Source: an uncultured delta proteobacterium
GTDB lineage: Bacteria; Desulfobacterota; Desulfuromonadia; Desulfuromonadales; BM103
Length of the DNA: 64,000 bases
Direction: 5' to 3'
Assembly: GCA_963715335.1 (NCBI GenBank)
Contig: CAVQRZ010000009.1
Coordinates: forward strand, 1-64,000
The notes under the pieces are model-generated. The model was not told the DNA's origin. It ran no database searches and was given only the letters and a program-made list of their open reading frames with translations. The position numbers were made by a program, and so were the translations under genes. Positions 14,532-41,473 of the stretch are shown one piece after another (the first letter of the stretch is position 1; every line of letters starts with the position of its first letter).

Positions 14532-14653
14532 CGTAGGCGAGTGACAACTTCTGTTAACTTTGCCAAGGTCGTTCTAACCTTGATTTTAAAAAGCACTCTG
14601 CAAAGTTCAGTTTCAGCGTTGTTTTATAATAAAAATCGGTGCTCAATAAATTT

Positions 14654-14669
14654 TGGTACACTCTGTGCC
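14654..14669 (+). promoter_or_regulatory. Candidate sigma54 promoter upstream of riboswitch 1
   Basis: TGGTACACTCTGTGCC = GG-N10-GC about 45 bp before the aptamer, in an AT-rich intergenic region. Confidence 0.55.
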
Positions 14670-14715
14670 ATAAGTACACTTCTCAATGAATTGATCGTTG
14701 CAGATAACGATTAAG

Positions 14716-14804
14716 AATCTCCGATAAAGGCAAAGCTAGAGAAATCTAGTGACGCAAAGCTACGGGTCCTGACCATTCGGGATAGCCGGGTTGCCGAAGA
14801 GATG
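14716..14804 (+). ncRNA. c-di-GMP-I (GEMM) riboswitch aptamer 1, upstream of the Pal-like gene
   Basis: GGCAAA-GCTAGA-GAAA-TCTAGT-GACGCAAAGCTACGGGTCC...GATAGCCGGGTTGCCGAA with P1 ATCTC/GAGAT; G at the Vc2-G20-equivalent position. Confidence 0.93.
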
Positions 14805-14841
14805 AGTCACATTTCTTGGAATCCGGCTACAGAGGTATTCA

Positions 14842-14886
14842 AGAAGCGCTCATCTTCGGCAGAGGATGAGCGCTTCTCCTGTTTTT
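14842..14886 (+). terminator. Intrinsic terminator, expression platform of riboswitch 1
   Basis: AGAAGCGCTCATCTTC-GGCA-GAGGATGAGCGCTTCT stem followed by CCTGTTTTT. Confidence 0.8.
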
Positions 14887-14977
14887 GCGGCAGCCTTTCT
14901 CCGGTGAATGTCCTCAGTCGAATGTTTCGATTGTTAGTTTATCGGCTGTTATTACCTTTACAAAGGAGAGTGAAAAA

Positions 14978-15502
14978 ATGAACAAGACCATCGTAAATGC
15001 TATCGTGATGACCCTGTTTGGCGCCTTGATTGTTACTGGGTGCGCAAAGCCCGAAGTGGCTGATCCGATCAGTGATTCAAGCAAAGCCCCGTCACCTTCA
15101 ACAACGCAATCAAATCTTGCCGTGGAGTCGGTCATAGAAAAACAACCTGCCCAAACTGCTCCGGCCCCAATTGCTCTTGAACAGATCCGGTTTGCTTACG
15201 ACCAGGCGACTTTATCCGCACAAGCCCGTAACACCTTGTCTGCCAATGCGGCGATTCTGCAATTAGCGCCTGAGTTATTGGTCAGCATTGAAGGGCATTG
15301 CGATGATCGCGGGTCAGACGAATACAATCTGTCGCTTGGAGAGCGGCGCGCCCAGTCAGTCAGGGCTTACCTGGTGTCGCTCGGGATTGAAGCACAACGT
15401 CTGAAGACCATTTCCTATGGCGAGGAAAAGCCGCTCGATACGGCGAACAATGAAATGGCCTGGGCCAAGAACCGCCGGGCCGAATTCAAGTTGCTCAATT
15501 AA
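14978..15502 (+). CDS. pal: Pal-like peptidoglycan-associated OmpA-family lipoprotein
   Basis: Lipobox IVTGC; IRFAYDQ, IEGHCDDRGSDEYNLSLGERRA, SYGEEKP, AWAKNRRAEF; RBS AAGGAG; no tolB adjacent, so probably a paralog. Confidence 0.85.
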   Translation: MNKTIVNAIVMTLFGALIVTGCAKPEVADPISDSSKAPSPSTTQSNLAVESVIEKQPAQTAPAPIALEQIRFAYDQATLSAQARNTLSANAAILQLAPELLVSIEGHCDDRGSDEYNLSLGERRAQSVRAYLVSLGIEAQRLKTISYGEEKPLDTANNEMAWAKNRRAEFKLLN

Positions 15503-15622: not shown

Positions 15623-15713
15623 CATATCTCCGACAAGGGCAAAGCCAGAGCAATCTGGTGACGCAAAGCCACGGGTCCTGACCGTTCAGGATAGCCGGGT
15701 TGCCGAAGAGATG
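15623..15713 (+). ncRNA. c-di-GMP-I riboswitch aptamer 2 (first of triple tandem)
   Basis: AGGGCAAA-GCCAGA-GCAA-TCTGGT-GACGCAAAGCCACGGGTCCTGA..TCAGGATAGCCGGGTTGCCGAAGAGATG. Confidence 0.93.
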
Positions 15714-15750
15714 AGGCACCATCTTGGGTCGGGCAGCAGGCCAGTTCCTT

Positions 15751-15786
15751 GAGCGCTCATCTTCGGTAGAAGATTGGGCGCTTTTT
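15751..15786 (+). terminator. Terminator of riboswitch 2
   Basis: GAGCGCTCATCTTC-GGTA-GAAGATTGGGCGCTTTTT hairpin with U tract. Confidence 0.8.
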
Positions 15787-15840
15787 CGTTTTGGGGCGCC
15801 AGGAAGGATTTTTCATCAGATAGACGTTCAATCACAAAAA

Positions 15841-15928
15841 CAGCTCCGAAAGGGCAAAGCCAGAGCAATCTGGTGACGCAAAGCTACGGGTCCTGACAGT
15901 TCAGGATGGCCGGGTTGCCGAAGAGATG
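15841..15928 (+). ncRNA. c-di-GMP-I riboswitch aptamer 3
   Basis: Same GEMM core; P1 CAGCTC/GAGATG with one mismatch. Confidence 0.92.
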
Positions 15929-15966
15929 AAGCACCATCTTGGATTCCGGCAGCAGGCCAGTTCCTT

Positions 15967-16002
15967 GAGCGCTCATCTTCGGCAGAAGATTGGGCGCTTT
16001 TT
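15967..16002 (+). terminator. Terminator of riboswitch 3
   Basis: GAGCGCTCATCTTC-GGCA-GAAGATTGGGCGCTTTTT. Confidence 0.8.
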
Positions 16003-16056
16003 CGTTTTGGGGCGCCAGGAAGGATTTTTCATCAGATAGACGTTCAATCACAAAAA

Positions 16057-16144
16057 CAGCTCCGAAAGGGCAAAGCCAGAGCAATCTGGTGACGCAAAGC
16101 TACGGGTCCTGACAGTTCAGGATGGCCGGGTTGCCGAAGAGATG
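16057..16144 (+). ncRNA. c-di-GMP-I riboswitch aptamer 4
   Basis: Identical by eye to aptamer 3. Confidence 0.92.
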
Positions 16145-16182
16145 AAGCACCATCTTGGATTCCGGCAGCAGGCCAATTCCTC

Positions 16183-16224
16183 GAGCGCTCATCTTCGGCA
16201 GAAGATTGGGCGCTTTTGTTTTTT
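16183..16224 (+). terminator. Terminator of riboswitch 4
   Basis: GAGCGCTCATCTTC-GGCA-GAAGATTGGGCGCTTTTGTTTTTT, about 80 bp before the adhesin ATG. Confidence 0.8.
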
Positions 16225-16303: not shown

Positions 16304-19300
16304 ATGTTGTTGCTTAAGATCATATCGAAGGGCCGGATAAAGCTTACAACCGTGGTTTTGGGTGTTGGCTTGCTGCTCGTTGCCGCAGCGGTTCAGGCTG
16401 CGCCCTGCGATATCAAACCCGGCGCAGATCCTTTCATACGGCACGATTTGTCCAATAGTTACTGCGAGCTGTGTGGCTACGGCTACATAACGATCATTGT
16501 CACCAACCCCTACAATTTCACGCAAGACCCCCTTGATCCACTGGGCCCGCAAATTCCCGGAGCGGATATGACCGCGATGACCGTCGAGGAGAACCTCGGC
16601 ATCTCCGGCTTGAGCTATGCTGAAAACGCACCGAATCCGGTCATCTACCGGGTTAACAACGGCATCGCCCAGGCCGGCTTAGCCCCGGCGATAAACGGCT
16701 CCACGCTGACCTTCACCTCAACCCAGGTCCCGGCCCTTACGCTTTTGCAGGCCCGACAAGGAATCAATCGGTTCAATACCATCTCCATCAGGGTTGCCGT
16801 AAGTCGGTCGACTGATCCGGAAGAGCTGATTGATGCTGACCGCACCATCCAGGCAACCCTGCGATTCGACACGGATTCAGGCTGCAACGATTCACCGCAA
16901 ACTGACACGGACACACTGCCGTTGCGCGAACCGATTCCGCAAGTGACCAAAACCGGCTGGAATTACGATGCCGGCCAGCGACAGAACTCGGCGAGTAACC
17001 CCGTTTACGGCAACAATAATGATGATGTTGTCTGGCGCGTCCGGATCGACAACGGCGGTCTGGCCGGTCTGCAGCACCTGCGTTTCGACGACCTGATGCA
17101 ATCGGACAGCATGGTCATCAGTGACGTTTGTGCAACCGACGTGTCGGCCAACATTATTGCGGGCAATAATGGGGCAGGGACTGCATCAGGATGTACTCCT
17201 GCGAGTAATAGAATCAATAATTTCCTCGTTACCAACCCATTTGGTGACATGGGTCTGTCGTTCGATGGTTACGAAGTCGATGTTGCCGCAGGCGGCAGCA
17301 CTTCCATCTATCTGGTCGGCAAGATCACTGGCAGCGGGTCTTGCGAAACCAGCCGGACCAACACTGTTGATGACGTCAGGTGGGGATGCGAACAACCGCC
17401 AGGGACCGGCGGCATCACCCGGACTTCGACAGGCATCATCCCTGCGGACACCGCCACCTTCTACTCCCTGTATAACGATGATCATCCACTCCTGAGCGTG
17501 CAACGCCGCCTGACCGGAACCAACACCTCCCAACCGGTGGGCAGTAAAGGGACAATGACCATCATCATCCGCAACAACAGCGGCGGGAGTGTGAAAAATA
17601 TCCACCTTGCCGATGTGCTGCCAGTTGAGTATGTGGTTGACCCGACCTTTGCCCCGGAACTCAATGTCAACCCGGCCTACGGAGTGGATTACGACGGCAT
17701 GATCGACACGCTGGTCTGGACGAATGAGGCTCCGCTCGACACACCCCTTGCCAACATCGCTCCCGAATTTGACCTGACCAGCAATGGCGTGACCCACCCG
17801 CTATATACCGACCAGGTCAACATGCTGCGGCATGGCGACGTGGCGGTTGTTCGGTTCCGTGTCGTCCTGATCGAGTCTGATTATTATGACCGGAACGCCA
17901 ATCTTGACGTCAACCCTGAAGAGTACCCGGTCACCGGAACCGATCCGACTTACAAGACCCCGCTGAGCAATCAACTGACCGTCGACTTCGACCTGTTCTG
18001 CGCCGCCCAGGGCCACCAGACGCTGGTTTTGACCGGCAATGGTACCGGTAACCCGACCGGGGCGGAAATTCCTGCCTTTCCCGAAGACCTGGATATTGCC
18101 GTTGGCGGCGATGTCTTCATTCTGACCAACGACCCCGATCAACTCCTGACATTGCCGATTCTGGTGACCAACAACGGTGGCCATGATGCTGCTGATTACC
18201 AAGTCTTTGTCAGCTTCGGCGCCACCATGGAAGTCGTTGATCCGCCGGCCGGTTGCAGTCCTATCGCATTATCCGGCGACCCCAACCAACCTGAACCCTG
18301 GAAGGTCTGGGTCCAACCTGCGCCGATCCCGGCAACGGCAACCGTCTACCAATGCAGTTCGCCTGGCGTCATCCGGCCGAGAGACACGGTCACACTTGAG
18401 TTTGATGTCAGGAAGAGCCTTGTGCCGTCACGGATTGTCATCGACGACCTCAGTCTGCGCGCTGATGTGGTCGGCGAAATCATGCTGAGCGATGGTACGC
18501 CACTCTGGTTTCCTGCACCTTTGAATCGGCCTGACGGACAGCTTGATCGCGCCAACAACTACTCGATGGACGCAACCTGGGCGCGCGTGATCGGCTTTAA
18601 CCTGAAAAAGAGTCAGATCGGCACCTGCAATGAGAATAATCCGCCAAGCTTCGATGCCAACGGCTACGAGGAGGTGCAGATTGGCGAGGAGTGCCTCTTC
18701 CATATCGAAACCGGGGGCTGGTTCGGTTTCAAAACACCAGGATTCGCCTATATTGCGGTGCAGAATATTGACGTGACCGATGAAGTCCCTGACGGACAAG
18801 CGTACCTTTCCAGTACCGACCCCTACGTCCAGTCTACCTCCTTGATCGAAAATGTGACACTGAATCCGGTTGACCTGTCGGCCCTCGACGAGGGCTGGTT
18901 TGACTGGCGCTTCAATGTTCCCGATGACGAGCAAATCCGGGTGGCCGATGAATGGTTTGTCGTTGACACGAAAACGCGGCTGCTCAACAAACCGATCGAT
19001 CAGCGCCAATCGCCTAATTTCCACGCTGAGAATAGCCACAATGTCCTTAATTCGATGTTTGATGCGACCTTCAAGAATGACAATACCGGTCTGGTCGAGA
19101 AATATACCCTCGGCCCGAACACGATCGGATATCCCAACGAAGCGATCCGCCGCGTTGACCTTACCCTGACTGAACCGCTGATCACGCTGGTCAAGGAGGT
19201 GTGCAACGAAACCCTGTACGGTATCGGAGATTCTTGCAGTAAGTTCGTTGCCCTGACCAATGAAGGCGATGCCTACAGTTCATACGTTTATCGCATCACG

Positions 19301-22300
19301 CTGTACAACGAGGAGAGCTATGACGACGTGCAGCGTGCTCCAGCCTACGATGTCATCGTCACGGACCTGCTTGACGACAGCGACCTCGCCTACGTGCTCC
19401 CCTTTGACAGTGACGGCCTGGATAATGACGGCGATGACATAGACGATGGTGCCGACACGAACGGTGAGGGGACGAATCTCGATAACGAGGTCAAAAATGA
19501 TCAGCCGGCCGAGCTGACTTTCTCTTACACCCACAGTACTGCGTTGCAGCGGATTGATCCGGGCCAGTCGGTCGAACTTTACTACCGGGTCAATTACGAT
19601 GACGATGCGGCCCCGCTGCAGACCTTCACCAACACCGTTGAGGCGACCTACGACAGCCTCGCCGGCGACTTCGGCAACCAGAGCGATCCGCAACACCCCA
19701 ACAGTGACCTCGGCAGCGCGCGAGTCTACAACGCCGAACCGGTATCGGCGAGTGTGCAGATCGTTCCTCTCGCGACGCGACCGAAGAGCATCGTAAATTT
19801 GTCCAATACGCCACTTTTGGCGGTTCCCGGCACCCAGAACGTTTCCGTTGGTGAAGAGATCGAGTACCAGCTCAACACCCTGCTGCCGGTTGCCCTGTTG
19901 CGTAATTTTGTGATTCAGGATCAATTGCCGGCCGAATTGGTCTGTGCAGAAGCTCCGGAAATAGACCTTGATCAAGCACCTTATAGCGATGCCGGATTCG
20001 AACCGGGGGGCAAGATCAGGCCGACCTGTACAGATGATCTGGTCAAATGGGATTTTGGCAGTCAGCGCCTGACAAAAGGAATCGGTGACAGCCGCTACGA
20101 TTTTGCTATCCGTTTTATTGCCCGGGTTGTCAATTCCGATATCACCAACGACGACGAAGAGATCGCCAACGGTCACCCCGCGACCGCAACCACGGTTGAA
20201 TATTTTAACGAAGAACCCAGGCTGATCTCCTACGATTTCGGCCAGGTTGACGTTCTCGTGCGTGAACCGCTCATCGAACTGACCAAAGCGTTTAATGTTG
20301 CCGCAGCCGATGCCGGCGACACCCTGACCGTGACGGTGACGGCTGCCAATGCCGGAACAGCTCCAGCCTATAACCTGCGAGTGCTCGACGATCTGGAGGA
20401 TCTCGATCTGACCTACGTGGGGAATCTCGGTGGTGCCAATCGGCCCGATAACGTAGATATGATCACCCTGGGACCTAATCGGCCGATCTTCAGTTGGAAC
20501 GCACCCAACAATATCGAGGCAGGCGCTGATATCAATTTTACCTTCGAGGTCAGAGTCAACCAGGATGTACAGCCACTCGGGCTGGTAAGCAATACTGTCC
20601 AGGCAGACTGGACGTCGTTACCCGGTCAGGCCACTGCGCTCAACAGCAGCGGGTTGATTGGTGATGATGGCAGCACGATCGGCATGCGCATCGGCTCCCT
20701 GCCGAACAGCAACCACGAGATCAACGATTATGAAGCCTCAACCGACAGCCAGCTGGCTATTCCGCCTATTACATTAACCAAAACCGACCTAGAGCCGACG
20801 ACGATTCCCACCGTCGGCGTGCATAAGCGGTTCAGGCTCGAGATCGGCCTGCCGGAAGGTATCAGCAGTGGCGTGATCGTCAGCGACAGCCTCGATGCAG
20901 CCGGTTTGAGTTATGTCCTGGCCAACAATGCCGACGCTGATATCAGCTATACCTTCGAAGGAATTGCTTCGATCAACGGTCTGCCGCCCAGCGAGGCGGC
21001 ATTCAGGACATTCCCGGCAGATGGAACCAGTGGCGACGCCGTTTGGGACCTCGTCAGCGTGGTCACCCAAATCGAGGATGACACGACCATTAACGAAATC
21101 TCTCCGCTGATCCGCATCGACTATTCTGCCCGCATCAACAACGATCTGGTGACCGACGCCGGCGACACCCTGCAAAACGGCGTCGTCCTTAACTATCTGA
21201 ACGGTGAGACCGCGGAAACCGAAACGCTTACCGCCGAGACCGCCGAGGTGGTTGTCTCCGAACCGGGCCTGACTCTATCCAAAACTTTGGCGAATGTCAC
21301 AACGGGCAAGGATCCTGCCGATACGGCAACCCTCGACGATGTTCTTGAGTACCGGGTCGCCGCAATCAACACGGGCAGCACCAACTCGACAGCTTTCGAT
21401 GTCAACATCCTGGACAACCTGCCGGTCGGGTTGGTGCTGGACGACAGGTTTACCCCGACCGCAACCATCGACGGGGATGACGTCCCCGGTTTCATCGCCC
21501 TGCCGTCCGTCGCTGCGACCGGCACCCTGGTCTGGGGCAGGGACAACGGCGACAGCAGCCTGGATATTCCGGCCGGGCAAGTCCTGGTACTCACCTACAG
21601 GGTCATTGTTCTGGTCATACCCGATCCGACCGAACTTATCGAGAATGAGGTCTGGAGCGACTGGACCTCTCTTGAAGGCCTGAATCCCTATGAGCGCACC
21701 GGTGAAGGTTGTCCGATCGTCACTGCCCCGGATGATTACTGTGCCGGCCCGGCCTACGCAACCGTTACCGGCGTCCTGCCGGAAGTGGTGTTCCGCAAAT
21801 CGGTTGTCAACCAGACCACCGGGGACAATCCGGGCGTCACCGCCAGCCCCGGCGATACCCTGCTGTATCGTCTGCAGGTAACCAATATCAGTACCGTTGC
21901 AGGCGCGTTTTCCGTGACCGATGAACTTGACCGGCTCAACGATCCAGCCATTTTTGTGCCCGGAACATTAACCGTTATTGCCGGCCATCCTGGTGTTGAC
22001 GCCAGCGCCCCGAATGGCGGCGCCGCAGGCACCGGCCTGGTTGATATCCGCGACCTGTCCCTGGAGGGCGGCGAATCCCTGACCATTGAATTCACCGTAC
22101 AACTGGCGCCGGTGATCACCAACGGCACTCTGGTATTGAACCAGGCACAACTGCAACTGACCGGATCGGGGTTGGTCAACAGTGACGACCCCAATCTGTC
22201 CGGTGATGAGAATCCCACGCAGACCTTGATTTCATCTGCCCCGATCTGGCGCATCGAGAAAAGTGCGCTGGACATGACCGGCGTCTCGGAAGTCCTCTTT

Positions 22301-25300
22301 GCCGGCGACCTGTTGCGATACACCATTACGGTGAAGAATGTCGGTAGCGAAAATGCTACGGAGGTCATGCTGCGCGACCAGGTTCCGGCCAATACCACCT
22401 ACATCGCCGACAGCACAACTCTGAATGGTGCCCTTATTGTTGACCCGGCACCGGGCGCATCACCCCTGGAGACTGGCATCCTGATCAATGCCTCCGAGGA
22501 TCCGACCGCAGGGGTGATGCGTGCCGATGTCGCGGAGACTGCCGACAACGAGGCAACTATCACTTTTGACGTCCAGGTCAATGAGGACACCGCCAGCGGC
22601 ACGATCATCTCTAATCAGAGCTTTGTCACCGGAAACGGTATCGGCAGCGGTGCTTTCCCGGAGCAACCGTCCGACGACCCGGCAACCGCCACTGTCGACG
22701 ACCCGACTCTCAAGGTTGTCAGCAGCGTGGAATTCCTAAAGTCGGTGTTCAACGTAACCAGCAACCGGGACGGCGCGGCGGCAATTCCGGGGGACGTCCT
22801 CAGGTACAGGCTGGAAATCATCAATACCGGCACCATTGATCTCAATGATCTATCCCTGATCGACGATCTCGAAAGTCTCCAGCCTGAGGATCCCCAGTTC
22901 TTCGTTGCCGGAACTCTGGCGATAGCGTCGGTTCCTGACGGGGCCGATGATACGGCCACCGATCCTTTTGGTGGCAGCAAGGGTACGGGAATTGTTGGCG
23001 TAAGCGGTCTGAAAGTCCCTGCCGGCGAAACCCTGATGGTCGAGTTCACGGTCCAGCTCGCGCCAATTATCACCAGCGGCACGCTCGTGTTGAACCAGGC
23101 AGAGCTGCTCGTCGCCGGGCAAGCACTGCGATTAAGTGATGACGATGACCTGGCTGCAGTCGGCGATGAGGACCCCACCGCAACCTTGATCACGTCGGCC
23201 CCGCTCTTCGAGGTCCTGAAAACCTCGACCATTTTAAGTGGCGATCCAACAGTCCTGCTGGCTGGTGAGACGCTGCGCTACACCCTGACCATCAGGAATA
23301 TCGGCAATGAAGACGCGGTCGATGTTCGATTAGAGGATTATACGCCGGACAATACCAGCTACCTGGCCAACAGCACAGCCCTTAACGGAACCGGCATCGC
23401 CGATCCCGCCCCCGGCATCAATCCGCTGCACGACGGCATCCTGATCAACGCTCCCGCAGATGGTACGCCCGGGTTACTGCCTGCCGGGGTGGCATCGGAT
23501 GTAGCGATTAATGCGACGGTGACTTTTGACGTGGTCGTTGATGCTGATGCCATGACCGGCTTGATCATCGAAAACCAGGGTTTTGTTAAAGGCAGCGGGG
23601 CAGGTAGCGGTGAACAGCCGGAACAGCCATCCGATGATCCGGCAACGCCGGTCGCTGATGACCCGACCCGCAACGTGGTCGGCAACATGCCCCTGCTTTA
23701 CGCGCATAAGACTGTTGAGATTGCTGACGACAGCATCCCCCTGGGCATTGTCAATCCAGGCGATTTATTGCGTTACACCATTACCGTCAGCAACAGTGGA
23801 GCGGTTCCTGCCACGACGGTGCTACTCACCGATAACGTGCCGACCAATACCCGTTACATCGCCGACTCCCTGCGGCTTAACGGTGCGACTATCGGCTCCG
23901 ATGGCGGTGTTTTACCGTTGATCGCCGGTTTAGCGCTGAATTCTGATGACAATCCGGGCGAGGGCATTGTCTCCATCGGCGAGAGTGCCGAGATTACTTT
24001 CGAGGTCCAGGTCAATGCCGGGTTGGCAACCGGTACGCTGATCAGCAACCAGGGAACCGTCAGCAGCACGGAACTGGCTCCTGGGTTGACTGATGCTGAT
24101 GGCCTGCCGTCCAATGGCTATCAACCGACGATCGTTGTTGTTGGCGATGTTCAGCTGCTTAGCCTGACCAAGGATGTCACGGTCGTCAACGGCGGCAGCG
24201 CTGAACCAGGTGCTGAGCTGGCATACGAGATCCGGGTTACAAATATCAGTGGTCTGGCGGCCACCGGGGTGGTGGTCACCGACGACCTCAGTGCGCCCCT
24301 GGGAGACCTGATTAGCTACATTGACGGTTCGGCAACCTTGAACGGCCTGGCTGCCGGAGTCACATTTTCGGCCAATATTCTCAGAGCCGATTATGCTGCC
24401 ACCTATGGCGACCTGCAGCCAGGTGCCAGTTTCGTCATTCGATTCAATGTCTTGATCGACCCGACGCTCGCGCGCGGGACGACCATCACCAATACCGGCG
24501 TTGTCAGTTGGGACAGCCCGCAGCAAACCGCATCGGCGGAGGTCTCACTTGATGTGGGCGGCACGCCGGGAAGTGCAGCATTAAGTGGTTTTGTCTGGCA
24601 CGACACGAGCCTGGACACGGTCTACGACCTTGACAACGAACCCGGTCAGCAGGACTGGCGGATAGAATTATATCTTCAAGGCCAGCTGGTGACCACGGTC
24701 ACAACCGATGCAAATGGCCTTTACCAGTTCACCGGTCTGCTGCCCTCCGCCAGGACCAGCGGACTCTATGAAATCCGTTTCCTTTCACCGGATGCCGGGC
24801 TCAATACCTCCTCTCTTGGTTACACCGATTCACCATTCAATGATGGCCCTCAGCAGATCACCGAGATCAGTGTCAACGAAGGGGGCAATCTGCAGAACCT
24901 GAATCTGCCGCTCTGGCCCAACGGCACCATTTACGATTCTATTACGCGCAGACCGGTTTCCGGAGCGACGCTGACAATGCGCAACGCAACCAGCGGCCTG
25001 TCACTGCCGGAAGAGTGCTTCGATGATCTGCTCCAGCAAAACCAGGTCACGACCCGCAACGGCTTCTACAAGTTCGATCTGAATTTCGGCTCAGCCGAGT
25101 GCCGGGCCGGCGGCTCCTATCTGATTGAAGTCACTGCACCGGCCAGCGGCTACCTGGAGACCCCCTCGGTTATTATCCCGCCGACCAGTGACGCGACCAC
25201 GATGCCTTTTTCCGTGCCTGACTGTCCTGGCCGACCGGTCGATGCTGTGCCAGCGACTGCCGATTACTGCGAGGCCGTCGCCTCGGCTGATGTGCCGCCA

Positions 25301-26413
25301 TTCTCAATTAGCGCAAGGTCGGCCGGCACCATTCATTACCTGCATCTGGTCCTGAGTGACGGCAACTTGCCCGGTCATAGTCAAATCTTCAACAATCCGA
25401 TTCCCGTTGACCCTGAACTGGGTGGGGCCGTAGCCATTACCAAGACAGCGTCCCTGACCAACGTGACCAAAAGCACACAGGTTCCTTACACGATCGTCGT
25501 CACCAACATCTTCGGCGTACCGCTGAATGATCTCCGTATCGTCGACCAGTTCCCGGCCGGTTTCAAGTACGTCTCCGGCAGTGCTCTGGTCGATGGCAAA
25601 GCCTTTGAACCGGAGATCAATGATCGGGAATTGGTATGGGATGCCCTTGAACTGGACGTCAACCAGGTACTGACCATCAAGTTGCTGCTGGTGGTGGGTT
25701 CAGGGGTCTCCGAAGGCGAATACGTGAACCGTGCAATGGTCTTCAATACCGCCCTCGATACGCCGGTCTCGGGACAGGCGACTGCGACCGTGCGGGTCGT
25801 CCCCGACCCGGACTTCGATTGTACCGACGTGATCGGCAAAGTATACGACGATCGCAACCTGAACGGCCGACAGGACGATGGTGAGCCGGGCTTATCGGGT
25901 GTCCGCGTGGTGACTGCGCGCGGCCTGATCGCGTCCACCGACGAATTCGGCCGATATCACATCACCTGTGCGACGGTTCCGGATCAAGATCGCGGCAGCA
26001 ACTTCATCATGAAGCTGGACGACCACAGCCTGCCGAGCGGTTATCGTGTGGTCACTGAGAACCCGCGGGTGCAGAGGGCCACGCGCGGCAAGATGATGCG
26101 TTTCAATTTCGGCGCAACGGTTCACCGTGTGGTGACGATTGATATCGCCGATGGCGTATTCGAGCCCGATTCCACTCAGCTCCGGCTGCAGTGGCAGTCA
26201 AAAATCGATCAACTGCTGAAGGTGTTGAAAGATTCTCCATCGGTCCTGCGGTTGTCATACCTGGCGGATACCGAGAATGAAAGTCTGGTTCGCCGCCGGC
26301 TCAAGGCGATGAAACTGGAAACTGTCGAACGCTGGAACCAGGCTGATGGCGGTTACCGTCTGACAATAGAGACCGAAGTGTTCTGGCGACGCGGCAGTCC
26401 GGTCCGGAAGTAG
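16304..26413 (+). CDS. Giant (3369 aa) secreted DUF11/isopeptide-domain repeat surface protein with SdrD-B-like domains and a degenerate OmpA-like C-terminus
   Basis: Sec signal (..LLLVAAAVQA); many K(S/T)...PG(D/E).L.Y.I.V.N.G......V...D..P...Y...S...N repeats; LSGFVWHD..D and VIGKVYDDRNLNGRQDDGEPGLSGV SdrD-B-like starts; acidic, Thr/Gly/Pro-rich. Confidence 0.88.
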   Translation: MLLLKIISKGRIKLTTVVLGVGLLLVAAAVQAAPCDIKPGADPFIRHDLSNSYCELCGYGYITIIVTNPYNFTQDPLDPLGPQIPGADMTAMTVEENLGISGLSYAENAPNPVIYRVNNGIAQAGLAPAINGSTLTFTSTQVPALTLLQARQGINRFNTISIRVAVSRSTDPEELIDADRTIQATLRFDTDSGCNDSPQTDTDTLPLREPIPQVTKTGWNYDAGQRQNSASNPVYGNNNDDVVWRVRIDNGGLAGLQHLRFDDLMQSDSMVISDVCATDVSANIIAGNNGAGTASGCTPASNRINNFLVTNPFGDMGLSFDGYEVDVAAGGSTSIYLVGKITGSGSCETSRTNTVDDVRWGCEQPPGTGGITRTSTGIIPADTATFYSLYNDDHPLLSVQRRLTGTNTSQPVGSKGTMTIIIRNNSGGSVKNIHLADVLPVEYVVDPTFAPELNVNPAYGVDYDGMIDTLVWTNEAPLDTPLANIAPEFDLTSNGVTHPLYTDQVNMLRHGDVAVVRFRVVLIESDYYDRNANLDVNPEEYPVTGTDPTYKTPLSNQLTVDFDLFCAAQGHQTLVLTGNGTGNPTGAEIPAFPEDLDIAVGGDVFILTNDPDQLLTLPILVTNNGGHDAADYQVFVSFGATMEVVDPPAGCSPIALSGDPNQPEPWKVWVQPAPIPATATVYQCSSPGVIRPRDTVTLEFDVRKSLVPSRIVIDDLSLRADVVGEIMLSDGTPLWFPAPLNRPDGQLDRANNYSMDATWARVIGFNLKKSQIGTCNENNPPSFDANGYEEVQIGEECLFHIETGGWFGFKTPGFAYIAVQNIDVTDEVPDGQAYLSSTDPYVQSTSLIENVTLNPVDLSALDEGWFDWRFNVPDDEQIRVADEWFVVDTKTRLLNKPIDQRQSPNFHAENSHNVLNSMFDATFKNDNTGLVEKYTLGPNTIGYPNEAIRRVDLTLTEPLITLVKEVCNETLYGIGDSCSKFVALTNEGDAYSSYVYRITLYNEESYDDVQRAPAYDVIVTDLLDDSDLAYVLPFDSDGLDNDGDDIDDGADTNGEGTNLDNEVKNDQPAELTFSYTHSTALQRIDPGQSVELYYRVNYDDDAAPLQTFTNTVEATYDSLAGDFGNQSDPQHPNSDLGSARVYNAEPVSASVQIVPLATRPKSIVNLSNTPLLAVPGTQNVSVGEEIEYQLNTLLPVALLRNFVIQDQLPAELVCAEAPEIDLDQAPYSDAGFEPGGKIRPTCTDDLVKWDFGSQRLTKGIGDSRYDFAIRFIARVVNSDITNDDEEIANGHPATATTVEYFNEEPRLISYDFGQVDVLVREPLIELTKAFNVAAADAGDTLTVTVTAANAGTAPAYNLRVLDDLEDLDLTYVGNLGGANRPDNVDMITLGPNRPIFSWNAPNNIEAGADINFTFEVRVNQDVQPLGLVSNTVQADWTSLPGQATALNSSGLIGDDGSTIGMRIGSLPNSNHEINDYEASTDSQLAIPPITLTKTDLEPTTIPTVGVHKRFRLEIGLPEGISSGVIVSDSLDAAGLSYVLANNADADISYTFEGIASINGLPPSEAAFRTFPADGTSGDAVWDLVSVVTQIEDDTTINEISPLIRIDYSARINNDLVTDAGDTLQNGVVLNYLNGETAETETLTAETAEVVVSEPGLTLSKTLANVTTGKDPADTATLDDVLEYRVAAINTGSTNSTAFDVNILDNLPVGLVLDDRFTPTATIDGDDVPGFIALPSVAATGTLVWGRDNGDSSLDIPAGQVLVLTYRVIVLVIPDPTELIENEVWSDWTSLEGLNPYERTGEGCPIVTAPDDYCAGPAYATVTGVLPEVVFRKSVVNQTTGDNPGVTASPGDTLLYRLQVTNISTVAGAFSVTDELDRLNDPAIFVPGTLTVIAGHPGVDASAPNGGAAGTGLVDIRDLSLEGGESLTIEFTVQLAPVITNGTLVLNQAQLQLTGSGLVNSDDPNLSGDENPTQTLISSAPIWRIEKSALDMTGVSEVLFAGDLLRYTITVKNVGSENATEVMLRDQVPANTTYIADSTTLNGALIVDPAPGASPLETGILINASEDPTAGVMRADVAETADNEATITFDVQVNEDTASGTIISNQSFVTGNGIGSGAFPEQPSDDPATATVDDPTLKVVSSVEFLKSVFNVTSNRDGAAAIPGDVLRYRLEIINTGTIDLNDLSLIDDLESLQPEDPQFFVAGTLAIASVPDGADDTATDPFGGSKGTGIVGVSGLKVPAGETLMVEFTVQLAPIITSGTLVLNQAELLVAGQALRLSDDDDLAAVGDEDPTATLITSAPLFEVLKTSTILSGDPTVLLAGETLRYTLTIRNIGNEDAVDVRLEDYTPDNTSYLANSTALNGTGIADPAPGINPLHDGILINAPADGTPGLLPAGVASDVAINATVTFDVVVDADAMTGLIIENQGFVKGSGAGSGEQPEQPSDDPATPVADDPTRNVVGNMPLLYAHKTVEIADDSIPLGIVNPGDLLRYTITVSNSGAVPATTVLLTDNVPTNTRYIADSLRLNGATIGSDGGVLPLIAGLALNSDDNPGEGIVSIGESAEITFEVQVNAGLATGTLISNQGTVSSTELAPGLTDADGLPSNGYQPTIVVVGDVQLLSLTKDVTVVNGGSAEPGAELAYEIRVTNISGLAATGVVVTDDLSAPLGDLISYIDGSATLNGLAAGVTFSANILRADYAATYGDLQPGASFVIRFNVLIDPTLARGTTITNTGVVSWDSPQQTASAEVSLDVGGTPGSAALSGFVWHDTSLDTVYDLDNEPGQQDWRIELYLQGQLVTTVTTDANGLYQFTGLLPSARTSGLYEIRFLSPDAGLNTSSLGYTDSPFNDGPQQITEISVNEGGNLQNLNLPLWPNGTIYDSITRRPVSGATLTMRNATSGLSLPEECFDDLLQQNQVTTRNGFYKFDLNFGSAECRAGGSYLIEVTAPASGYLETPSVIIPPTSDATTMPFSVPDCPGRPVDAVPATADYCEAVASADVPPFSISARSAGTIHYLHLVLSDGNLPGHSQIFNNPIPVDPELGGAVAITKTASLTNVTKSTQVPYTIVVTNIFGVPLNDLRIVDQFPAGFKYVSGSALVDGKAFEPEINDRELVWDALELDVNQVLTIKLLLVVGSGVSEGEYVNRAMVFNTALDTPVSGQATATVRVVPDPDFDCTDVIGKVYDDRNLNGRQDDGEPGLSGVRVVTARGLIASTDEFGRYHITCATVPDQDRGSNFIMKLDDHSLPSGYRVVTENPRVQRATRGKMMRFNFGATVHRVVTIDIADGVFEPDSTQLRLQWQSKIDQLLKVLKDSPSVLRLSYLADTENESLVRRRLKAMKLETVERWNQADGGYRLTIETEVFWRRGSPVRK

Positions 26414-26512
26414 GGCCCCTCGATCACGGGGCATGGTACGCGGCCGGATAATGCATTTCGGCCGGATAGCACTTTGCGACATCTTGCAACCTTTTGCCGT
26501 AAATGGAAATCA

Positions 26513-29500
26513 ATGACCAAGCGCAGTCTTGCCATTTTGAGTTTGAGTCTGATTTTCGCAGCCGGGGCTGATGCCTCCGCGGTTGCGGAGTCGGACTCCC
26601 GTGGCTTCGGATCAGCAGTCGGGGTCCGGGATGCGGCAGCTTACGGCGCTTCAACCGAACGGCATCTGCCCCCCGATCGGCCATTGACTCCCTGGATCCT
26701 TGATCCTGCCGTGTTTGACGAGGATCAGGGCGACCAGGTTGAGCTGAGCCAGGTCGCTGCACCGGATGTCAAAACCGTCAAACTTGCCGATCTTATTCCG
26801 GCGATCCGTTTCCGCGAGGGCGAGTCGGAAATTCCCGAGGATTACCTGGTGCGTTTACGCGAGCTGCTTGAGAGCATGCAGGACCGCGCTAATGTTCGTC
26901 TTCACTTTGTCGGCCATGCTGACTCCCAGGTGCTTAGCGATTCTTTACAGGAGCTCTATGGCGACAATATCGGCCTGTCTCGGGAACGGGCGGGGACAAC
27001 TGCCGAATATTGCCAGAGGGCCTTGAACCTTCCTCCGGAGGCAATCTCCTATGAGGGCTTGGGTGACAGCCGCCCGATTGCCAGCAATGCAACCGAGGCC
27101 GGACGTGCCCTCAACCGTCGCGTTGAGGTAGAGGTCTGGTACGACGAAATCGGTGAAAAAATGGTCGACAAAGAAGTTATCGTCCCCCGCGAGGCGAGTC
27201 GCATCAAGGTTTGTCGAACCGAGACCGTATGTAAGTTGCGCTACCAGGAAGGACACGCGCATCGCGCCAGGGTCAAGAACCTGATTGCACCGCTGCATTA
27301 CGATGACGGCATGGTGAATATCCCGGAGCAGTTTCTGTTTCAGGTCAGGCAGGCCCGGGAAAGCCTTCAGGGCAAAAAAAATGTTCTGGTCAAGTTTATT
27401 GCTTACACCGACAACACACCACTGACGGGTCGACAGGAGCGTATCTACGGCAACCAGCTAGGCCTGTCGAAAGCCGTCTCCCGACGCGTTGCCCTTGCTG
27501 TTCAGGACGCACTGATGTTGACAAATGCAGATGTTGACAGTGAAGGGCTGGGAGCGTCGCGGCCGGTTGCAGCCAACGATACGCAACAGGGCAGGGCCCT
27601 GAACCGGCGGGTCGAAGTTGAGTTCTGGCACGATGATTCACTGCAGGACCTGCCAGACGAACCACAGATTTGCCCGGACGCCGCAGGGGCCGAAACCGTT
27701 ACCCGGGTTTACGATTCACCTTCGGGCGGGATCGCCCCGATCCTGTTTGAAGACGGCAAGCCGGTTATCCCACCCGGGGCCATCGATCGTCTGCGCCAGG
27801 CCATGGCCGAGGTCGCTGACAAGAGCAACGCGCGTCTAAAGTTCATCGGCTATACCAGCAACGAACGGCTCAACCGCCGCACCGCCGAGATTTATAATGA
27901 TGACATCGGTTGGTCGACGGTGCGTGCCCGCCGTACCCTGGTGGCAGTAAGCGACGAGATGGGACTGCCGGCAGAGCAGGCCGAATTCGAAGGCCGTGGC
28001 TACGTCCAGTCCGATGATGTGGTCAACTCCGGGTTTATTGAATCAGACATTTCGCGGGTCGAAGTGCAGGTCGTCTACGACGAACTGGTGTTGCTGGATG
28101 ACTACGAAGGGGTGGAGATCACCCGCCTGGTGCGCGAGGTCAAAACGGAGAACCCCTTTGCCCTCAACCTGATGCGCATCACGGTCGACGGCAAACCGCT
28201 CGACGATCCCGGCAAAAGCATCCAGGATGTCCAGCGCTGCACCGACGTTGCGCTGGACCAGGCTGAGGTCAGGTTCAAACTTGACAGCATCAACCTGGAA
28301 CCACGTCTGAATGTCACCGCCTGGCCGCGTTCCGTGCGTTATCGTGACGTCGAAGAAACGGCGTTCGCCGAGAACCGGGTCGAGTTCCGGATTTACACCA
28401 ACTATCGCAGCTTCATTGAGCGGGCGGAGGTCAGGATTTTCAAAGAAGTCCAGTCGGTTCGCGATCTGCCCCTGGCGGTCATTGATATAGACAGCTCCGG
28501 CCTGGCGCAGTGGCAGCCTGATTTTGAGGCCTATTCTGCGCCGGGGCTGACCTTGAAATACCTGGTTCGGGTTTACGATGCAAACGGGCAGTTCGATGAG
28601 ACGACCCCGCAGCCGCTGTGGGTGGTCGATCAGGTCGACCCGATCGTGGTCATGGCGAATCCGCACGCAGAACTTTTGGCCGGATACGGCGAGAGCCGTA
28701 TCGCCATCCGCAACATCCCACTGCAGGGCGGCACAGTACAGGCTCACGGTAAAGCGATCCCCGAAGGCCACGGCGTCTGGCTGGCCGGGCATGAGGTTCC
28801 GGTGGATGGCACAGGGCGTTTCATCGCCGAAGAAATCCTTCCGGGGGGGATGCATACCGTCGAGGTCGCGGTACTCGACACTGCCGGCAATGGTGACCTG
28901 TTCCTGCGTGACCTGGCATTGGCAAGAAACGACTGGTTTGCCGTGGGCATCGCCGACGTGACTCTCTCCGGCAACAAAACCAACGGTCCGGCCGACACGC
29001 TTTCCCCAGACAACAAGCGTTACCAGGAAGACGTCAGTCTCGATGGCCGCCTGGCTTTCTACACCCGCGGCAAACTCGACAATGACTGGTTGCTGACGGC
29101 GAGTGCAGACACCAGGGAAGCCCCTTTGGATGAGCTCTTTTCCAACTTCGTCGACAAGTCAACCGATGCACTGTTCCGGAGACTGGACCCGGACCACCAT
29201 TACCCCACTTTTGGTGACGACAGCACCGTGGAGGAGGATGCGCCAACCAGCGGCAAGTTCTATGTCAAGCTCAGCAATTACGAGAACTACGGTCTTTGGG
29301 GGAATTTCGAGGTCGGATACCTGGATACTGACCTGGCGCAAGTCGACCGTGACCTGTATGGCGCCAACCTGCATTACCAGTCACTTGATGCGACCGGCTT
29401 TGGTGAGCCGCGAGTCCTGCTGGACGGTTTCGGTGCGGACCCCGGAACCGTGGCCGGGCGTGAGGAGTTTCGCGGCACCGGCGGATCACTCTTTTACCTG

Positions 29501-31609
29501 CGCCAGCAGGACATCCTGATGGGGTCGGACAACTTGCGTATCGAAGTGCGCGACAAGGACTCGGGAATCGTCCTGGCTGTCACGAACCTGGCGGCGGACC
29601 TTGATTACGATATCGACTACATCCAGGGCCGCATCCTTTTGTCGAAGGTCCTGCCGACAACCGCGGATGACAACCTGCTGGTCAGCACCAATTCGATCAG
29701 CGGCAACCCGGTCTTTCTGGTGGCCCGCTATGAATACACACCCGGCTTCGATGATCCGGATACCCTGGTGACCGGCGGCCGGGCTCACTACTGGTTCAAT
29801 GACATGGTCAAACTTGGCGTGACCGCCAGCTGGGAAGAGGAAGCAGATATCGAAAGCCGCCTGGGGGGCTTTGATCTGACCCTGCGCAAATCATCCGCGT
29901 CATGGCTCAAACTCGAAGTTGGGCGCACCAGGGGCCCGGGTGTGAACACCGAGTCCTCCTACGATGGCGGCTACAGCTTCAGCCCCGCCGACTCTTTTAA
30001 CGATGAAGAGACAAAGGCGACGGCTTACCGGGCAGACGGCAGCGTCGGTTTCAGCGACATCATCGAAAGTTGGCGCGGCCGGGCGACCTTCTACCTGCAG
30101 GACCTCGGTGAGGGCTACTCGGCACCGGGGCTGTTGACGACGCAAGACCTCACCCAGTATGGCGGAACGGCTGAATTGCCGATTGCCAATCGCTGGCTGG
30201 TGCGTCTGAAAGTGGATCGGCTGGTTCAGGATAACGGGCTTGAGGCGGATCAGGGAGAAATAAATATCGATTATCAGATGAGTGAACATTGGACTTTGAG
30301 TTCGGGATTACGTGGCGATAACCGGCAGGACAACTCAGAGCTTGAACCGGCAACTCAGGATCAGGGCAAGCGAGCCGATGGCGTGGTTCAGTTGACATAC
30401 GATTCACATACGCGTTGGACGGCTTACGGTTTTGTGCAGGGAACCATTAAAGCGACCGGCGAACGAGAGACCAATGACAGGATCGGTGCCGGCGGCAGTT
30501 GGCGTCTGACCGATCGATTCAGTCTTAACGGTGAGGTCTCTGAAGGGGACCAAGGCACGGGGGTCAGTCTTGGGAGCGATTTCCTCTACAGTGATCGAAC
30601 CACAATGTATCTCAACTATGCACTGGAGAATGAGCGCACTGACAATGGCCTGCGCGCAAGGAAGGGCAAAATGATTTCCGGGGGCCGCACCCGTTATTCG
30701 GACAGTGCAAGCGTCTACGTGGAGGAGCAGTATTCCCATGGTGACATGCCCGCCGGCCTGGTGCATTCCGCCGGCGTCGACCTCGCGCCGACCGACCGGC
30801 TCAATATCAACGCGAATGTTGATCTGGGCACACTCACGGACCCGGTTACGGCCACTGATCTGAAACGCAAGGCGCTGGCGGCCAGCATCGGTTACGGTTT
30901 CGAGCGCCTGTCGCTCGTCAATGCCCTGGAGTATCGGGTGGACGAGACCGCACAAACAGATTCCAGCGATTCAAAACGGACCACCTGGCTGTTCAAGAGC
31001 AGTTTCAAGTTGCAACTTTCAGCCGATTGGCGGGCTGTCGGTAAATTCAACTATTCGAAGAGTGAAAGCTCGCTGGGAGATTCTTATGATGGTGACTACA
31101 CCGAAGCCGTTTTGGGGCTCGCCTATCGGCCGGTCCGCTTCGATCGTCTCAACCTGCTGCTCAAGTACACCTATTTCTACAATCTGCCGGCGATTGATAA
31201 CGAAGCTGCCAGCGATTCAGGTTTTATCCAGCGCAGCCATATCGGCGCGGTTGACTTGACGTATGAACTCTCGCCCCGCTGGACCCTGGGGGGTAAATAT
31301 GCCTTCCGGCTTGGTCAGATGGCTCTGGATCGAGACAACCGCGACTTCTTCGACAGCCGGGCCAACCTGTACGTGGTGCGTGCTGACTGGCATTTTCTCT
31401 ACCGCTGGGATGCGCTTGTCGAAGCCCGCATGCTTGATCTGCCCGACGCGGAAGATCGTCGCAGCGGGGTACTGGTGACGCTGTATCGCCACCTGGGCAA
31501 CCACGTCAAGGTAGGGGTCGGTTACAGCTTCTGTGATTTTTCGGATGATTTGACCGAACTGGACTACCGGCACCAGGGGGTATTCGTCAACCTGGTCGGG
31601 AAACTGTAG
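26513..31609 (+). CDS. Outer-membrane protein with three OmpA-like domains and a large C-terminal predicted beta-barrel
   Basis: Signal MTKRSLAILSLSLIFAAGADA; FVGHADS..LSRERA..GRALNRRVEVEV, AYTDN..GRALNRRVEVEF and a third degenerate unit FIGYTSN..SRVEVQV; C-terminal ~850 aa of amphipathic strands ending GVFVNLVGKL. Confidence 0.82.
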   Translation: MTKRSLAILSLSLIFAAGADASAVAESDSRGFGSAVGVRDAAAYGASTERHLPPDRPLTPWILDPAVFDEDQGDQVELSQVAAPDVKTVKLADLIPAIRFREGESEIPEDYLVRLRELLESMQDRANVRLHFVGHADSQVLSDSLQELYGDNIGLSRERAGTTAEYCQRALNLPPEAISYEGLGDSRPIASNATEAGRALNRRVEVEVWYDEIGEKMVDKEVIVPREASRIKVCRTETVCKLRYQEGHAHRARVKNLIAPLHYDDGMVNIPEQFLFQVRQARESLQGKKNVLVKFIAYTDNTPLTGRQERIYGNQLGLSKAVSRRVALAVQDALMLTNADVDSEGLGASRPVAANDTQQGRALNRRVEVEFWHDDSLQDLPDEPQICPDAAGAETVTRVYDSPSGGIAPILFEDGKPVIPPGAIDRLRQAMAEVADKSNARLKFIGYTSNERLNRRTAEIYNDDIGWSTVRARRTLVAVSDEMGLPAEQAEFEGRGYVQSDDVVNSGFIESDISRVEVQVVYDELVLLDDYEGVEITRLVREVKTENPFALNLMRITVDGKPLDDPGKSIQDVQRCTDVALDQAEVRFKLDSINLEPRLNVTAWPRSVRYRDVEETAFAENRVEFRIYTNYRSFIERAEVRIFKEVQSVRDLPLAVIDIDSSGLAQWQPDFEAYSAPGLTLKYLVRVYDANGQFDETTPQPLWVVDQVDPIVVMANPHAELLAGYGESRIAIRNIPLQGGTVQAHGKAIPEGHGVWLAGHEVPVDGTGRFIAEEILPGGMHTVEVAVLDTAGNGDLFLRDLALARNDWFAVGIADVTLSGNKTNGPADTLSPDNKRYQEDVSLDGRLAFYTRGKLDNDWLLTASADTREAPLDELFSNFVDKSTDALFRRLDPDHHYPTFGDDSTVEEDAPTSGKFYVKLSNYENYGLWGNFEVGYLDTDLAQVDRDLYGANLHYQSLDATGFGEPRVLLDGFGADPGTVAGREEFRGTGGSLFYLRQQDILMGSDNLRIEVRDKDSGIVLAVTNLAADLDYDIDYIQGRILLSKVLPTTADDNLLVSTNSISGNPVFLVARYEYTPGFDDPDTLVTGGRAHYWFNDMVKLGVTASWEEEADIESRLGGFDLTLRKSSASWLKLEVGRTRGPGVNTESSYDGGYSFSPADSFNDEETKATAYRADGSVGFSDIIESWRGRATFYLQDLGEGYSAPGLLTTQDLTQYGGTAELPIANRWLVRLKVDRLVQDNGLEADQGEINIDYQMSEHWTLSSGLRGDNRQDNSELEPATQDQGKRADGVVQLTYDSHTRWTAYGFVQGTIKATGERETNDRIGAGGSWRLTDRFSLNGEVSEGDQGTGVSLGSDFLYSDRTTMYLNYALENERTDNGLRARKGKMISGGRTRYSDSASVYVEEQYSHGDMPAGLVHSAGVDLAPTDRLNINANVDLGTLTDPVTATDLKRKALAASIGYGFERLSLVNALEYRVDETAQTDSSDSKRTTWLFKSSFKLQLSADWRAVGKFNYSKSESSLGDSYDGDYTEAVLGLAYRPVRFDRLNLLLKYTYFYNLPAIDNEAASDSGFIQRSHIGAVDLTYELSPRWTLGGKYAFRLGQMALDRDNRDFFDSRANLYVVRADWHFLYRWDALVEARMLDLPDAEDRRSGVLVTLYRHLGNHVKVGVGYSFCDFSDDLTELDYRHQGVFVNLVGKL

Positions 31610-31689: not shown

Positions 31690-32202
31690 ATGATCAAAAT
31701 TGTAAAAACGATCGTATTGGGAGTTCTCCTTTGTGCCTGGAGTTTCAACGTTTCTGGCCAGCAGGTCACCAGGGAACAGATCAAGGGTCTCGACGAACAG
31801 GTGCAGGAGATCAAGAGTGATGTCCTGTCGATTGCCGCGGAACTGAACCAGCTGGAGGAGAAGCTGCTCTATCCGTCGCAAACCCAGATCTCGATCTTCA
31901 TGGCCCTGGCAGAAGATGAGCAGTCGAGGCTCGACGCCGTGGAGGTCCTGCTGGACGGCAACCCGGTCGCCTATCACCTCTACACCTACCGGGAGCTTGA
32001 AGCCTTGCGCAGGGGTGGTGTTCAGCGCATCTATACCGGAAATATCAAAACCGGAGAGCATCAAGTTCGGGTGAAGCTGATTGGCGAGTCTGAAGGGAGT
32101 GCCTTCGAACGTTCAGAAGAATTCATGGTTCAAAAGGATGTGGGCCCCAGCATTGTGGAAATAAGCGTGGCTCACCAGGCAATAACCTTTAATGACAGGT
32201 AG
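31690..32202 (+). CDS. Secreted protein with coiled coil and small beta domain (conserved partner of the TPR cluster)
   Basis: Signal peptide; LDEQVQEIKSDVL..ELNQLEEKLLYP heptads; HLYT.RELEALRRGGVQRIYTGN. Confidence 0.7.
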   Translation: MIKIVKTIVLGVLLCAWSFNVSGQQVTREQIKGLDEQVQEIKSDVLSIAAELNQLEEKLLYPSQTQISIFMALAEDEQSRLDAVEVLLDGNPVAYHLYTYRELEALRRGGVQRIYTGNIKTGEHQVRVKLIGESEGSAFERSEEFMVQKDVGPSIVEISVAHQAITFNDR

Positions 32203-32205
32203 TCC

Positions 32206-37885: not shown

Positions 37886-37933
37886 CCAGATTGTTTTGTC
37901 GAACATGCAAGCAACTCTGAAGGGAAGCTGAAT

Positions 37934-38245: not shown

Positions 38246-38249
38246 AGTC

Positions 38250-38903: not shown

Positions 38904-38905
38904 TT

Positions 38906-39894: not shown

Positions 39895-39905
39895 ACGGGA
39901 ATTCC

Positions 39906-41357: not shown

Positions 41358-41473
41358 ATTTTGGTCGGGGTCATCCTGGATGGCCTCATGATCTTGGTCA
41401 CTTATGGGTGGGTGCTTGCGGGCGATGAAGCATGATTGGAGTTAATTTTAACCATCAATTCAGGAGAGACATC

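Follow-up and report, generated by a model that had tools for sequence, protein, structure and literature searches.

A triple-tandem c-di-GMP-I riboswitch with a probably co-transcribed fourth unit upstream of a giant surface-protein gene and an Agl-Glt-like cluster

A stretch of 64,000 nucleotides from an uncultured delta proteobacterium (the window) contains a triple-tandem c-di-GMP-I riboswitch directly upstream of a gene for a giant exported protein, and a fourth, related unit lies further upstream before a Pal-like gene. We favour the reading, at a probability of roughly 0.55, that the three units and the likely co-transcribed fourth are independent transcription switches, which turn a 26-kb surface cluster ON at high c-di-GMP. 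The triple arrangement itself is already known from Bc3-5 and from a survey of this riboswitch class, which counted 347 doublets and 12 triplets (PMC9481103), and the present array is a further case of it; the platform and the target cluster, however, differ from those of Bc3-5.

A first-pass annotation, made from the letters alone, had assigned the array to the c-di-GMP-I class, had placed three complete aptamer and terminator units before the giant gene and a fourth before pal, and had expected four matches to the Rfam c-di-GMP-I model. A search of the 64-kb window at the gathering threshold returned exactly four matches of the c-di-GMP-I clan and nothing else, all on the + strand, starting at 14720, 15629, 15844 and 16060 (spacing 909, 215 and 216), with 61.5–66.3 bits against RF03167 (cut-off 59, E 2e-13 to 4e-12) and 70–75 bits against RF01051 (cut-off 35). 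The pocket bases were placed by motif position, following the Vc2 numbering. The aptamers show P2 with a GNRA loop, P3 and, in 4/4 units, the bases G20, A47 and C92, which are the pocket contacts of c-di-GMP-I aptamers (PMC5888326). A GC-rich hairpin followed by a T-run, a predicted terminator, lies 3' of every aptamer (4/4). The class, including its c-di-GMP-type G20, and the layout of three units plus one both stand. With at least two complete units of aptamer and platform in one leader, the array is a tandem riboswitch. The annotated host, a Gram-negative deltaproteobacterium, agrees with the relatives found in Desulfuromonadia, and the genome (G000) holds 18 such aptamers in total. The features of the locus are:

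14653..14669, + strand: sigma-54-like promoter motif (GG-N10-GC), the predicted start of a transcript with pal and the giant gene
14720..14799, + strand: unit 1 c-di-GMP-I aptamer (Rfam), with G20 at 14729, A47 at 14756 and C92 at 14794
14800..14887, + strand: unit 1 platform, with anti-aptamer strand 14810-14829, spacer hairpin and predicted terminator 14842-14887
14978..15502, + strand: gene for a Pal-like OmpA lipoprotein of 174 aa (TIGR02802, 132 bits against a cut-off of 125; PF00691)
15629..15708, + strand: unit 2 aptamer (Rfam), with G20 at 15638 and C92 at 15703
15709..15792, + strand: unit 2 platform, with anti-aptamer strand 15720-15742 and predicted terminator 15752-15792
15844..15923, + strand: unit 3 aptamer (Rfam), with G20 at 15853, C92 at 15918 and an outer P1 of just 3 bp
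15924..16008, + strand: unit 3 platform, with anti-aptamer strand 15935-15958 and predicted terminator 15968-16008
16060..16139, + strand: unit 4 aptamer (Rfam), with G20 at 16069, C92 at 16134 and an outer P1 of just 3 bp
16140..16224, + strand: unit 4 platform, with anti-aptamer strand 16151-16174 and predicted terminator 16184-16224
16304..26413, + strand: gene for a giant exported protein of 3369 aa, a putative adhesin (DUF11 repeats, SdrD_B, isopeptide-forming domain)
26474..31609, + strand: gene for a 1711-aa protein with OmpA-type peptidoglycan-binding domain(s), from domain matches
31690..42247, + strand: Agl-Glt core-complex-like genes, from domain matches and gene order

Local folding of the terminator hairpins gave −28 kcal/mol for unit 1 and about −20 kcal/mol for units 2 and 4, and the stem of unit 3 is identical to that of unit 4. 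Among the four hairpins, a strict terminator scan listed only that of unit 1; the stems of units 2–4 contain a one-base bulge. The unit 1 terminator may be the weaker one, since CCTG sits between its stem and T5. Each terminator is a hairpin separate from the aptamer, the hairpin that takes the aptamer strand (the anti-aptamer hairpin) has no U-run, and none of these units builds its terminator out of the 3' strand of the aptamer, the design of Bc3-5 and pilM. Four mutually exclusive helices are predicted, i.e., the aptamer, the anti-aptamer hairpin, a spacer hairpin together with an antiterminator, and the terminator. In the anti-aptamer hairpin, the 25 nt after the aptamer would fold back onto P3, C92 and P1, and in the antiterminator, the aptamer tail would pair with the 5' arm and loop of the terminator and thereby take the pocket base C92. 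The spacer columns CAUCUUGG and CCGGC are mostly 80–100% conserved, and the next stretch 30–70%.

The anti-aptamer hairpin was evaluated in 43 homologous units picked on aptamer and tail only, i.e., not on the motif under test. In the ligand-free ensemble, C92 pairs with the spacer in 43/43 of them (41% with shuffled spacers), and at least five anti-aptamer pairs form in 38/43 (26% with shuffled spacers), counts that come from related and thus not independent sequences. In a loop-anchored set of 70 units, for which 7 of 126 units without a spacer or P1 anchor were dropped, the hairpin forms in 65/70. When the pocket is held, a partial antiterminator of at least five pairs forms in 70/70; at equilibrium without ligand, the full antiterminator wins in 63/70, including units 1 and 2, but not units 3 and 4, in which it is not favoured (2.0 and 0.3 antiterminator pairs, respectively, in the ligand-free ensemble). 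The median barriers calculated over 69 units are 1.8 kcal/mol from the anti-aptamer hairpin to the terminator, 18 kcal/mol from the anti-aptamer hairpin to the full antiterminator and 14 kcal/mol from the full antiterminator to the terminator, and the barrier from the pocket-compatible partial antiterminator to the terminator is 5.3 kcal/mol. The anti-aptamer helix of unit 2 is weak (z −0.8; barrier to the full antiterminator 6.6–9.6). Complementarity between loop and pocket is perfect in just 7/45 aptamer-picked units (2 rows mis-anchored), a set used here because loop conservation in the loop-pattern set is fixed by the search pattern itself. In a fixed-register count, the pairing of the tail with the terminator arm scored 0.678 vs. 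0.642 ± 0.010 in partner shuffles (125 units, related sequences), only slightly above chance because registers differ among subgroups. In a rough, uncalibrated co-transcriptional simulation, termination without ligand was 25% for unit 1 and 98% for unit 3, and termination with ligand was 100% for both, an OFF-like outcome for unit 1. A second version of the simulation was set aside, as its pruning lost the bound state and runs ended misfolded. All of these values come from an energy model without tertiary contacts, pseudoknots, ligand or polymerase, uncalibrated on a switch of known sign.

The folding predictions suggest the following mechanism. Without ligand, the strand just past the aptamer would fold onto P3, C92 and P1 to form the long anti-aptamer hairpin, which would hide the antiterminator strand, and the terminator would form. 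With ligand bound, the aptamer would outlast the window in which the anti-aptamer hairpin can form, the freed strand would fold into the spacer hairpin, and the aptamer tail would then pair with the 5' arm of the terminator. To hold, this antiterminator would have to extend further, through the loop, and capture C92 from the ligand, which is the weakest step of the proposal. Passage through three or four such units would multiply the fold-change and cut the leak, while the response curve would be sharpened modestly. The first-pass annotation had gone further and proposed near-digital control, which is an overstatement: the computed apparent Hill coefficient of three independent one-site switches is 1.26, with a 10–90% range of 32-fold as against 81-fold for one switch, and four such switches would reach 1.30 and 29-fold. 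The gain from tandem units is thus expected to lie mainly in the multiplied fold-change and the reduced leak; with lacZ, Bc3-5 gave 3.4-fold vs. 1.2-fold for one unit (PMC4759541).

On the folding models, the sign of the switch is probably ON, and an OFF sign, as in the Cd1 riboswitch, is somewhat unlikely. c-di-GMP is generally linked to adhesion, which forms part of the weighting towards ON. Termination of the ligand-free RNA would imply read-through of the bound form, and with it an ON switch. The conserved anti-aptamer hairpin, with its low barrier to the terminator and high barrier to the full antiterminator, counts for ON, and the opposite sign leaves it unexplained; the lack of a favoured ligand-free antiterminator in units 3 and 4, the nearly complete ligand-free termination of unit 3 in simulation and the rarity of perfect loop-pocket complementarity point the same way. 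Among known systems, Bc3-5 is an ON switch (PMC4759541), and in G. sulfurreducens, all GEMM-Ib-controlled genes are reported to drop on the loss of cGAMP (PMC6456294). If the same array instead had the opposite sign, which we hold to be the less probable case, expression of the cluster would be expected when c-di-GMP is low: the full antiterminator would form without ligand, bypassing or displacing the anti-aptamer hairpin, and bound c-di-GMP would protect C92, such that the partial antiterminator alone forms and is displaced by the terminator. The stable read-through fold argues for this sign, because its C92 is paired with the terminator loop and no ligand can be held, as in the OFF switch Cd1 (PMC9262584). 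So do the barrier of 5.3 kcal/mol out of the partial antiterminator as against 14 for the full form, the complete with-ligand termination of units 1 and 3 in the rough simulation, the equilibrium preference for the full antiterminator in most units, the weak anti-aptamer helix of unit 2 and the slight excess of tail pairing over shuffles. In addition, units of a different spacer type precede cytochrome lipoproteins, which we infer to be like Geobacter PgcA, and Ig/FN3 proteins, and such gene types are cGAMP-ON and c-di-GMP-opposed in Geobacter (PMC6456294).

c-di-GMP is the predicted ligand based on G20, since a G in the specificity position is associated with a preference for c-di-GMP (PMC9481103); G20 occurs in 125 of 136 distinct homologous units, and an A at this position, the mark of cGAMP-type GEMM-Ib aptamers, was found in none of the four units (G in 4/4). 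The Rfam sub-label is misleading in this respect: the G20 units of a relative (G015) scored best as the -UAU family, and the -GGC/-UAU labels were rejected as ligand calls. A physiological role of 3',3'-cGAMP as the ligand, either in place of c-di-GMP or beside it, is very improbable in view of G20 in all four units and in most homologues, and would fit either sign. However, cGAMP signalling probably exists in this genome, and cross-binding is therefore possible: among 16 GGDEF matches, 2 of 14 domains inspected by eye carry Ser for the Asp of GHxxGD with the GGDEF motif intact, one of the 18 aptamers has A20 (G000:C33:46611), and both dinucleotides have been reported as ligands of the omcS riboswitch (PMC6456294, which also describes this Ser as the Hypr signature). 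The two domains, possible cGAMP synthases, are:

G000:C22:90011-90472: Hypr-like GGDEF domain
G000:C1:227566-228036: Hypr-like GGDEF domain

As for the copy number, the third copy might be an assembly artefact of the 216-bp repeat, since the blocks 15729-15944 and 15945-16160 are identical at 214 of 216 bases, no record spanning three units was found in 8 sequencing runs (8 of 22 listed), all contigs being covered, and contamination of the bin is 6.87%, with some contigs duplicated. We consider this extremely improbable, because the homologous loci of relatives carry 1–4 units, and four further triples of this platform are among them. One, an independent triple in G015 (spacing 218/218, 89% identical), immediately precedes a giant gene of 71% identity, and the others lie in G179, G209 and G237. 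Every unit also has its private differences (units 3 and 4 match at 165/170 bases, units 1 and 2 at 135/171). One record of 247 nt (X6-8; 1 gap, no mismatches) covers 15972-16217, i.e., the junction of units 3 and 4, and an RNA run (X20) holds just a piece of a relative, 90–95% alike.

The co-transcription of the fourth unit is suggested by the promoter and terminator scans. With the sigma-54 consensus as the search motif, TGG-N9-TGC occurs just once on the + strand between 14400 and 16310, at 14654, upstream of unit 1. The strict sigma-54-like motif was found in 6 of 74 upstream regions of first units vs. 0.03 in shuffles, 60–72 nt before the unit; the loose form was found in 24 of 74, a count without shuffle comparison, and is by itself at chance level in the 3.8-kb locus. 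The loose form also precedes the triple of G015, whose locus has no pal. The genome encodes an RpoN domain, and a sigma-70 scan returned 0 sites with 1.4 expected. Between the pal stop and unit 2, the terminator scan gave no match, and the hairpin present there has no adjacent U-run, in agreement with the earlier remark that no clear terminator separates the two. The lone sigma-54-like motif before unit 1 and the lack of a canonical terminator after pal fit one transcript through all four switches, which is plausible from these motifs. Between the sigma-54-like site and unit 1 lies a 10-bp perfect hairpin at 14693-14711 (ATCGTTGCAG-ATAA region, GATCGTT...AACGATT), which is kept in several relatives. 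Two other arrays have a tRNA gene ~45 nt before their first riboswitch (L026:14472-14544 and L165:1221-1293) and may be read from the tRNA promoter, as no sigma-54-like motif lies upstream.

From the giant gene onward, 25.9 kb are closely packed, neighbouring genes being separated by −35 to 80 nt. The giant protein has a signal-peptide-like start (by eye) and matches PF01345 (E 6e-46), PF17210 and, above cut-off, TIGR01451 and TIGR04226. Its earlier description as an adhesin is a guess from its domains (DUF11, SdrD_B and isopeptide). The genes at 31690..42247 encode a 170-aa ORF, three TPR proteins (630, 1042 and 221 aa), a 103-aa ORF, one ExbB/TolQ (PF01618), two ExbD/TolR (PF02472 twice), a GltG-like protein with an AgmX/PglI C-terminal domain and a 271-aa ORF. 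The GltG-like protein reaches 57 bits against NF033768 (cut-off 40), matches the GltG model at E 4e-12, far below its cut-off, shows no match to an FHA domain, and was recovered from 14 of the 61 genomes in which it was sought. The 221-aa protein matches the GltE model at E 2e-6, below cut-off, and the 630- and 1042-aa TPR proteins match no Glt model at E 0.1, the atlas giving TPR clusters only. A homologue search with the ExbB protein listed close relatives named ExbB/TolQ.

Based on these matches, the 26-kb cluster resembles the Agl-Glt core complex, which PMC3169522 describes as gltC, D, E, G, aglR, Q, S and one extra gene in Geobacter, gammaproteobacteria and Fibrobacter, with a function outside gliding bacteria that it called unknown in 2011. 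Each of the two sets contains one ExbB/TolQ, two ExbD/TolR, three TPR proteins and a GltG-like protein beside a small additional gene; the sizes are 630/1042/230/165/164 aa here vs. 673/1191/245/162/194 aa in M. xanthus, and the counterparts of GltC, GltD and AglR are candidates. Unlike that core, the present one is preceded by the giant DUF11 protein and the large OmpA-domain protein behind riboswitches, neither protein being mentioned in the description given in PMC3169522. The array would tie an Agl-Glt-core-like cluster to c-di-GMP and to a giant surface protein, giving it an expression condition and a candidate cargo. A gene for a receiver and PilZ protein (42451-43302) follows after a gap of 203 nt, and also follows a second copy of the locus in the same genome; it is a possible link to c-di-GMP at the protein level.

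We note several likenesses and differences to known riboswitches. The first-pass annotation rightly named Bc3-5 of Bacillus thuringiensis CT-43 (PMC4759541) as a precedent: it likewise has three near-identical units in series in one leader, with their own terminators and a G at the specificity position. However, in Bc3-5, the ligand-binding C, P1 and a portion of P3 are taken up into the terminator itself, whereas the terminator here is separate and lies ~45 nt downstream, with the anti-aptamer hairpin, spacer hairpin and antiterminator in between. Moreover, the host here is Gram-negative, a fourth unit probably lies upstream, and the sign is predicted from folding alone. Cd1 (flgB, Clostridioides difficile; PMC9262584) shares the long platform, the separate terminator and the pairing of the pocket C (C87 in Cd1, C92 here) within the antiterminator, but it is a single unit, and the account in PMC9262584 describes no proximal-spacer hairpin invading P3 and the pocket. 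The GEMM-Ib riboswitches of Geobacter, e.g., those before omcAHG and pilM (PMC6456294, PMC9262584), come from the same class of organisms, share the aptamer fold and include tandems before surface-protein operons, but they are cGAMP-selective, whereas the present units carry G20; in pilM, the terminator is exclusive with the aptamer, in contrast to the separate terminators here. A literature search covering few subscription papers returned no description of the present platform or of riboswitch control of the Agl-Glt core complex; the supplements of two surveys (PMC9481103, PMC12452182) may list such arrays.

A broader joint reading, in which a lineage-wide 'capture or hand-off' platform is combined with the Agl-Glt core as the export and display machine of the giant protein, is quite unlikely as a whole. 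If it is true, the ligand acts briefly, blocking the anti-aptamer hairpin before being expelled by the antiterminator, and a Cd1-like OFF design has been turned into an ON switch. The stack of 1–4 copies would then be a tunable series gating the giant DUF11 protein and the Agl-Glt core, and the motor ancestral to Myxococcus gliding would have a function in the proton-driven export or display of the giant protein. Some 70 naturally occurring variants of a single platform combine the anti-aptamer hairpin with the pocket-invading antiterminator, so that one measurement of the sign would fix it for the lineage and test transient ligand action.

The relatives show how the array varies. Of 390 genomes in the class, 103 contained a match to a pattern built on the aptamer alone, and among the matches listed (150 of 198, plus 10 genomes searched again), tight triples occur in six genomes (G000, G015, G141, G179, G209 and G237, that of G141 with a different spacer type). 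Three genomes (G237, G248, G280) have four units within about 1.0–1.6 kb. In G006, pal lies between one unit and a following pair, in G003 between two single units, and G033 has a single matched unit before the giant gene. Altogether, 74 distinct arrays have this platform (46 single, 23 double and 5 triple), copy numbers that are under-counted because the pattern misses degenerate units. The annotation's statement that triples are rare is too strong for this lineage, with tight triples in at least six genomes of the class; tandem c-di-GMP riboswitches are enriched in Thermodesulfobacteriota (PMC12452182). In a short, partly unresolved tree of 55 units from 22 chosen loci, the nearest neighbour of a unit is usually in its own array, suggesting that triples probably either originated several times through local duplication or were homogenised; units 2 and 3 form a supported pair (99/98), and unit 1 falls with the units that stand before pal in relatives. 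Copy number (1–4) would accordingly vary among relatives via local duplication.

Further units were observed elsewhere. A 33-kb contig of the same genome (G000:C16, − strand) holds a second locus copy with pal, two units and the genes from the giant gene through the receiver-PilZ gene at 70% DNA identity, which may be a contig of another organism or a paralogue, since contigs are duplicated at 92–96% and contamination is 6.87%. A unit-1-like switch with a piece of pal lies at a contig end (G000:C2:322-1050). Three more G20 units (G000:C21:61107, 61679 and 62026; spacing 572 and 347) have the same terminator but a different spacer. In this type, also seen in L040/L191, the spacer UUUUGCC is predicted to pair with the 5' side of the aptamer in 19/19 units, and the units precede Ig/cadherin/FN3 proteins or cytochrome lipoproteins. 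Arrays on the side of the Geobacterales, another order of the same class (L184:6740-7110, L185, L186, L187, L189) have a conserved ORF of ~53 aa between the array and the last unit, beside a conserved hairpin element with a U-run, for which Rfam gave no family at threshold (best Leu_leader, 23 bits vs. 50). Finally, at four loci (L046, L086, L092, L098), lone units that have a short spacer and keep the loop complementarity, two of them with A20 and all without the anti-aptamer hairpin, stand before stand-alone receiver-domain genes (receiver domains checked by Pfam for L046 and L092), and these units are predicted to be OFF switches.
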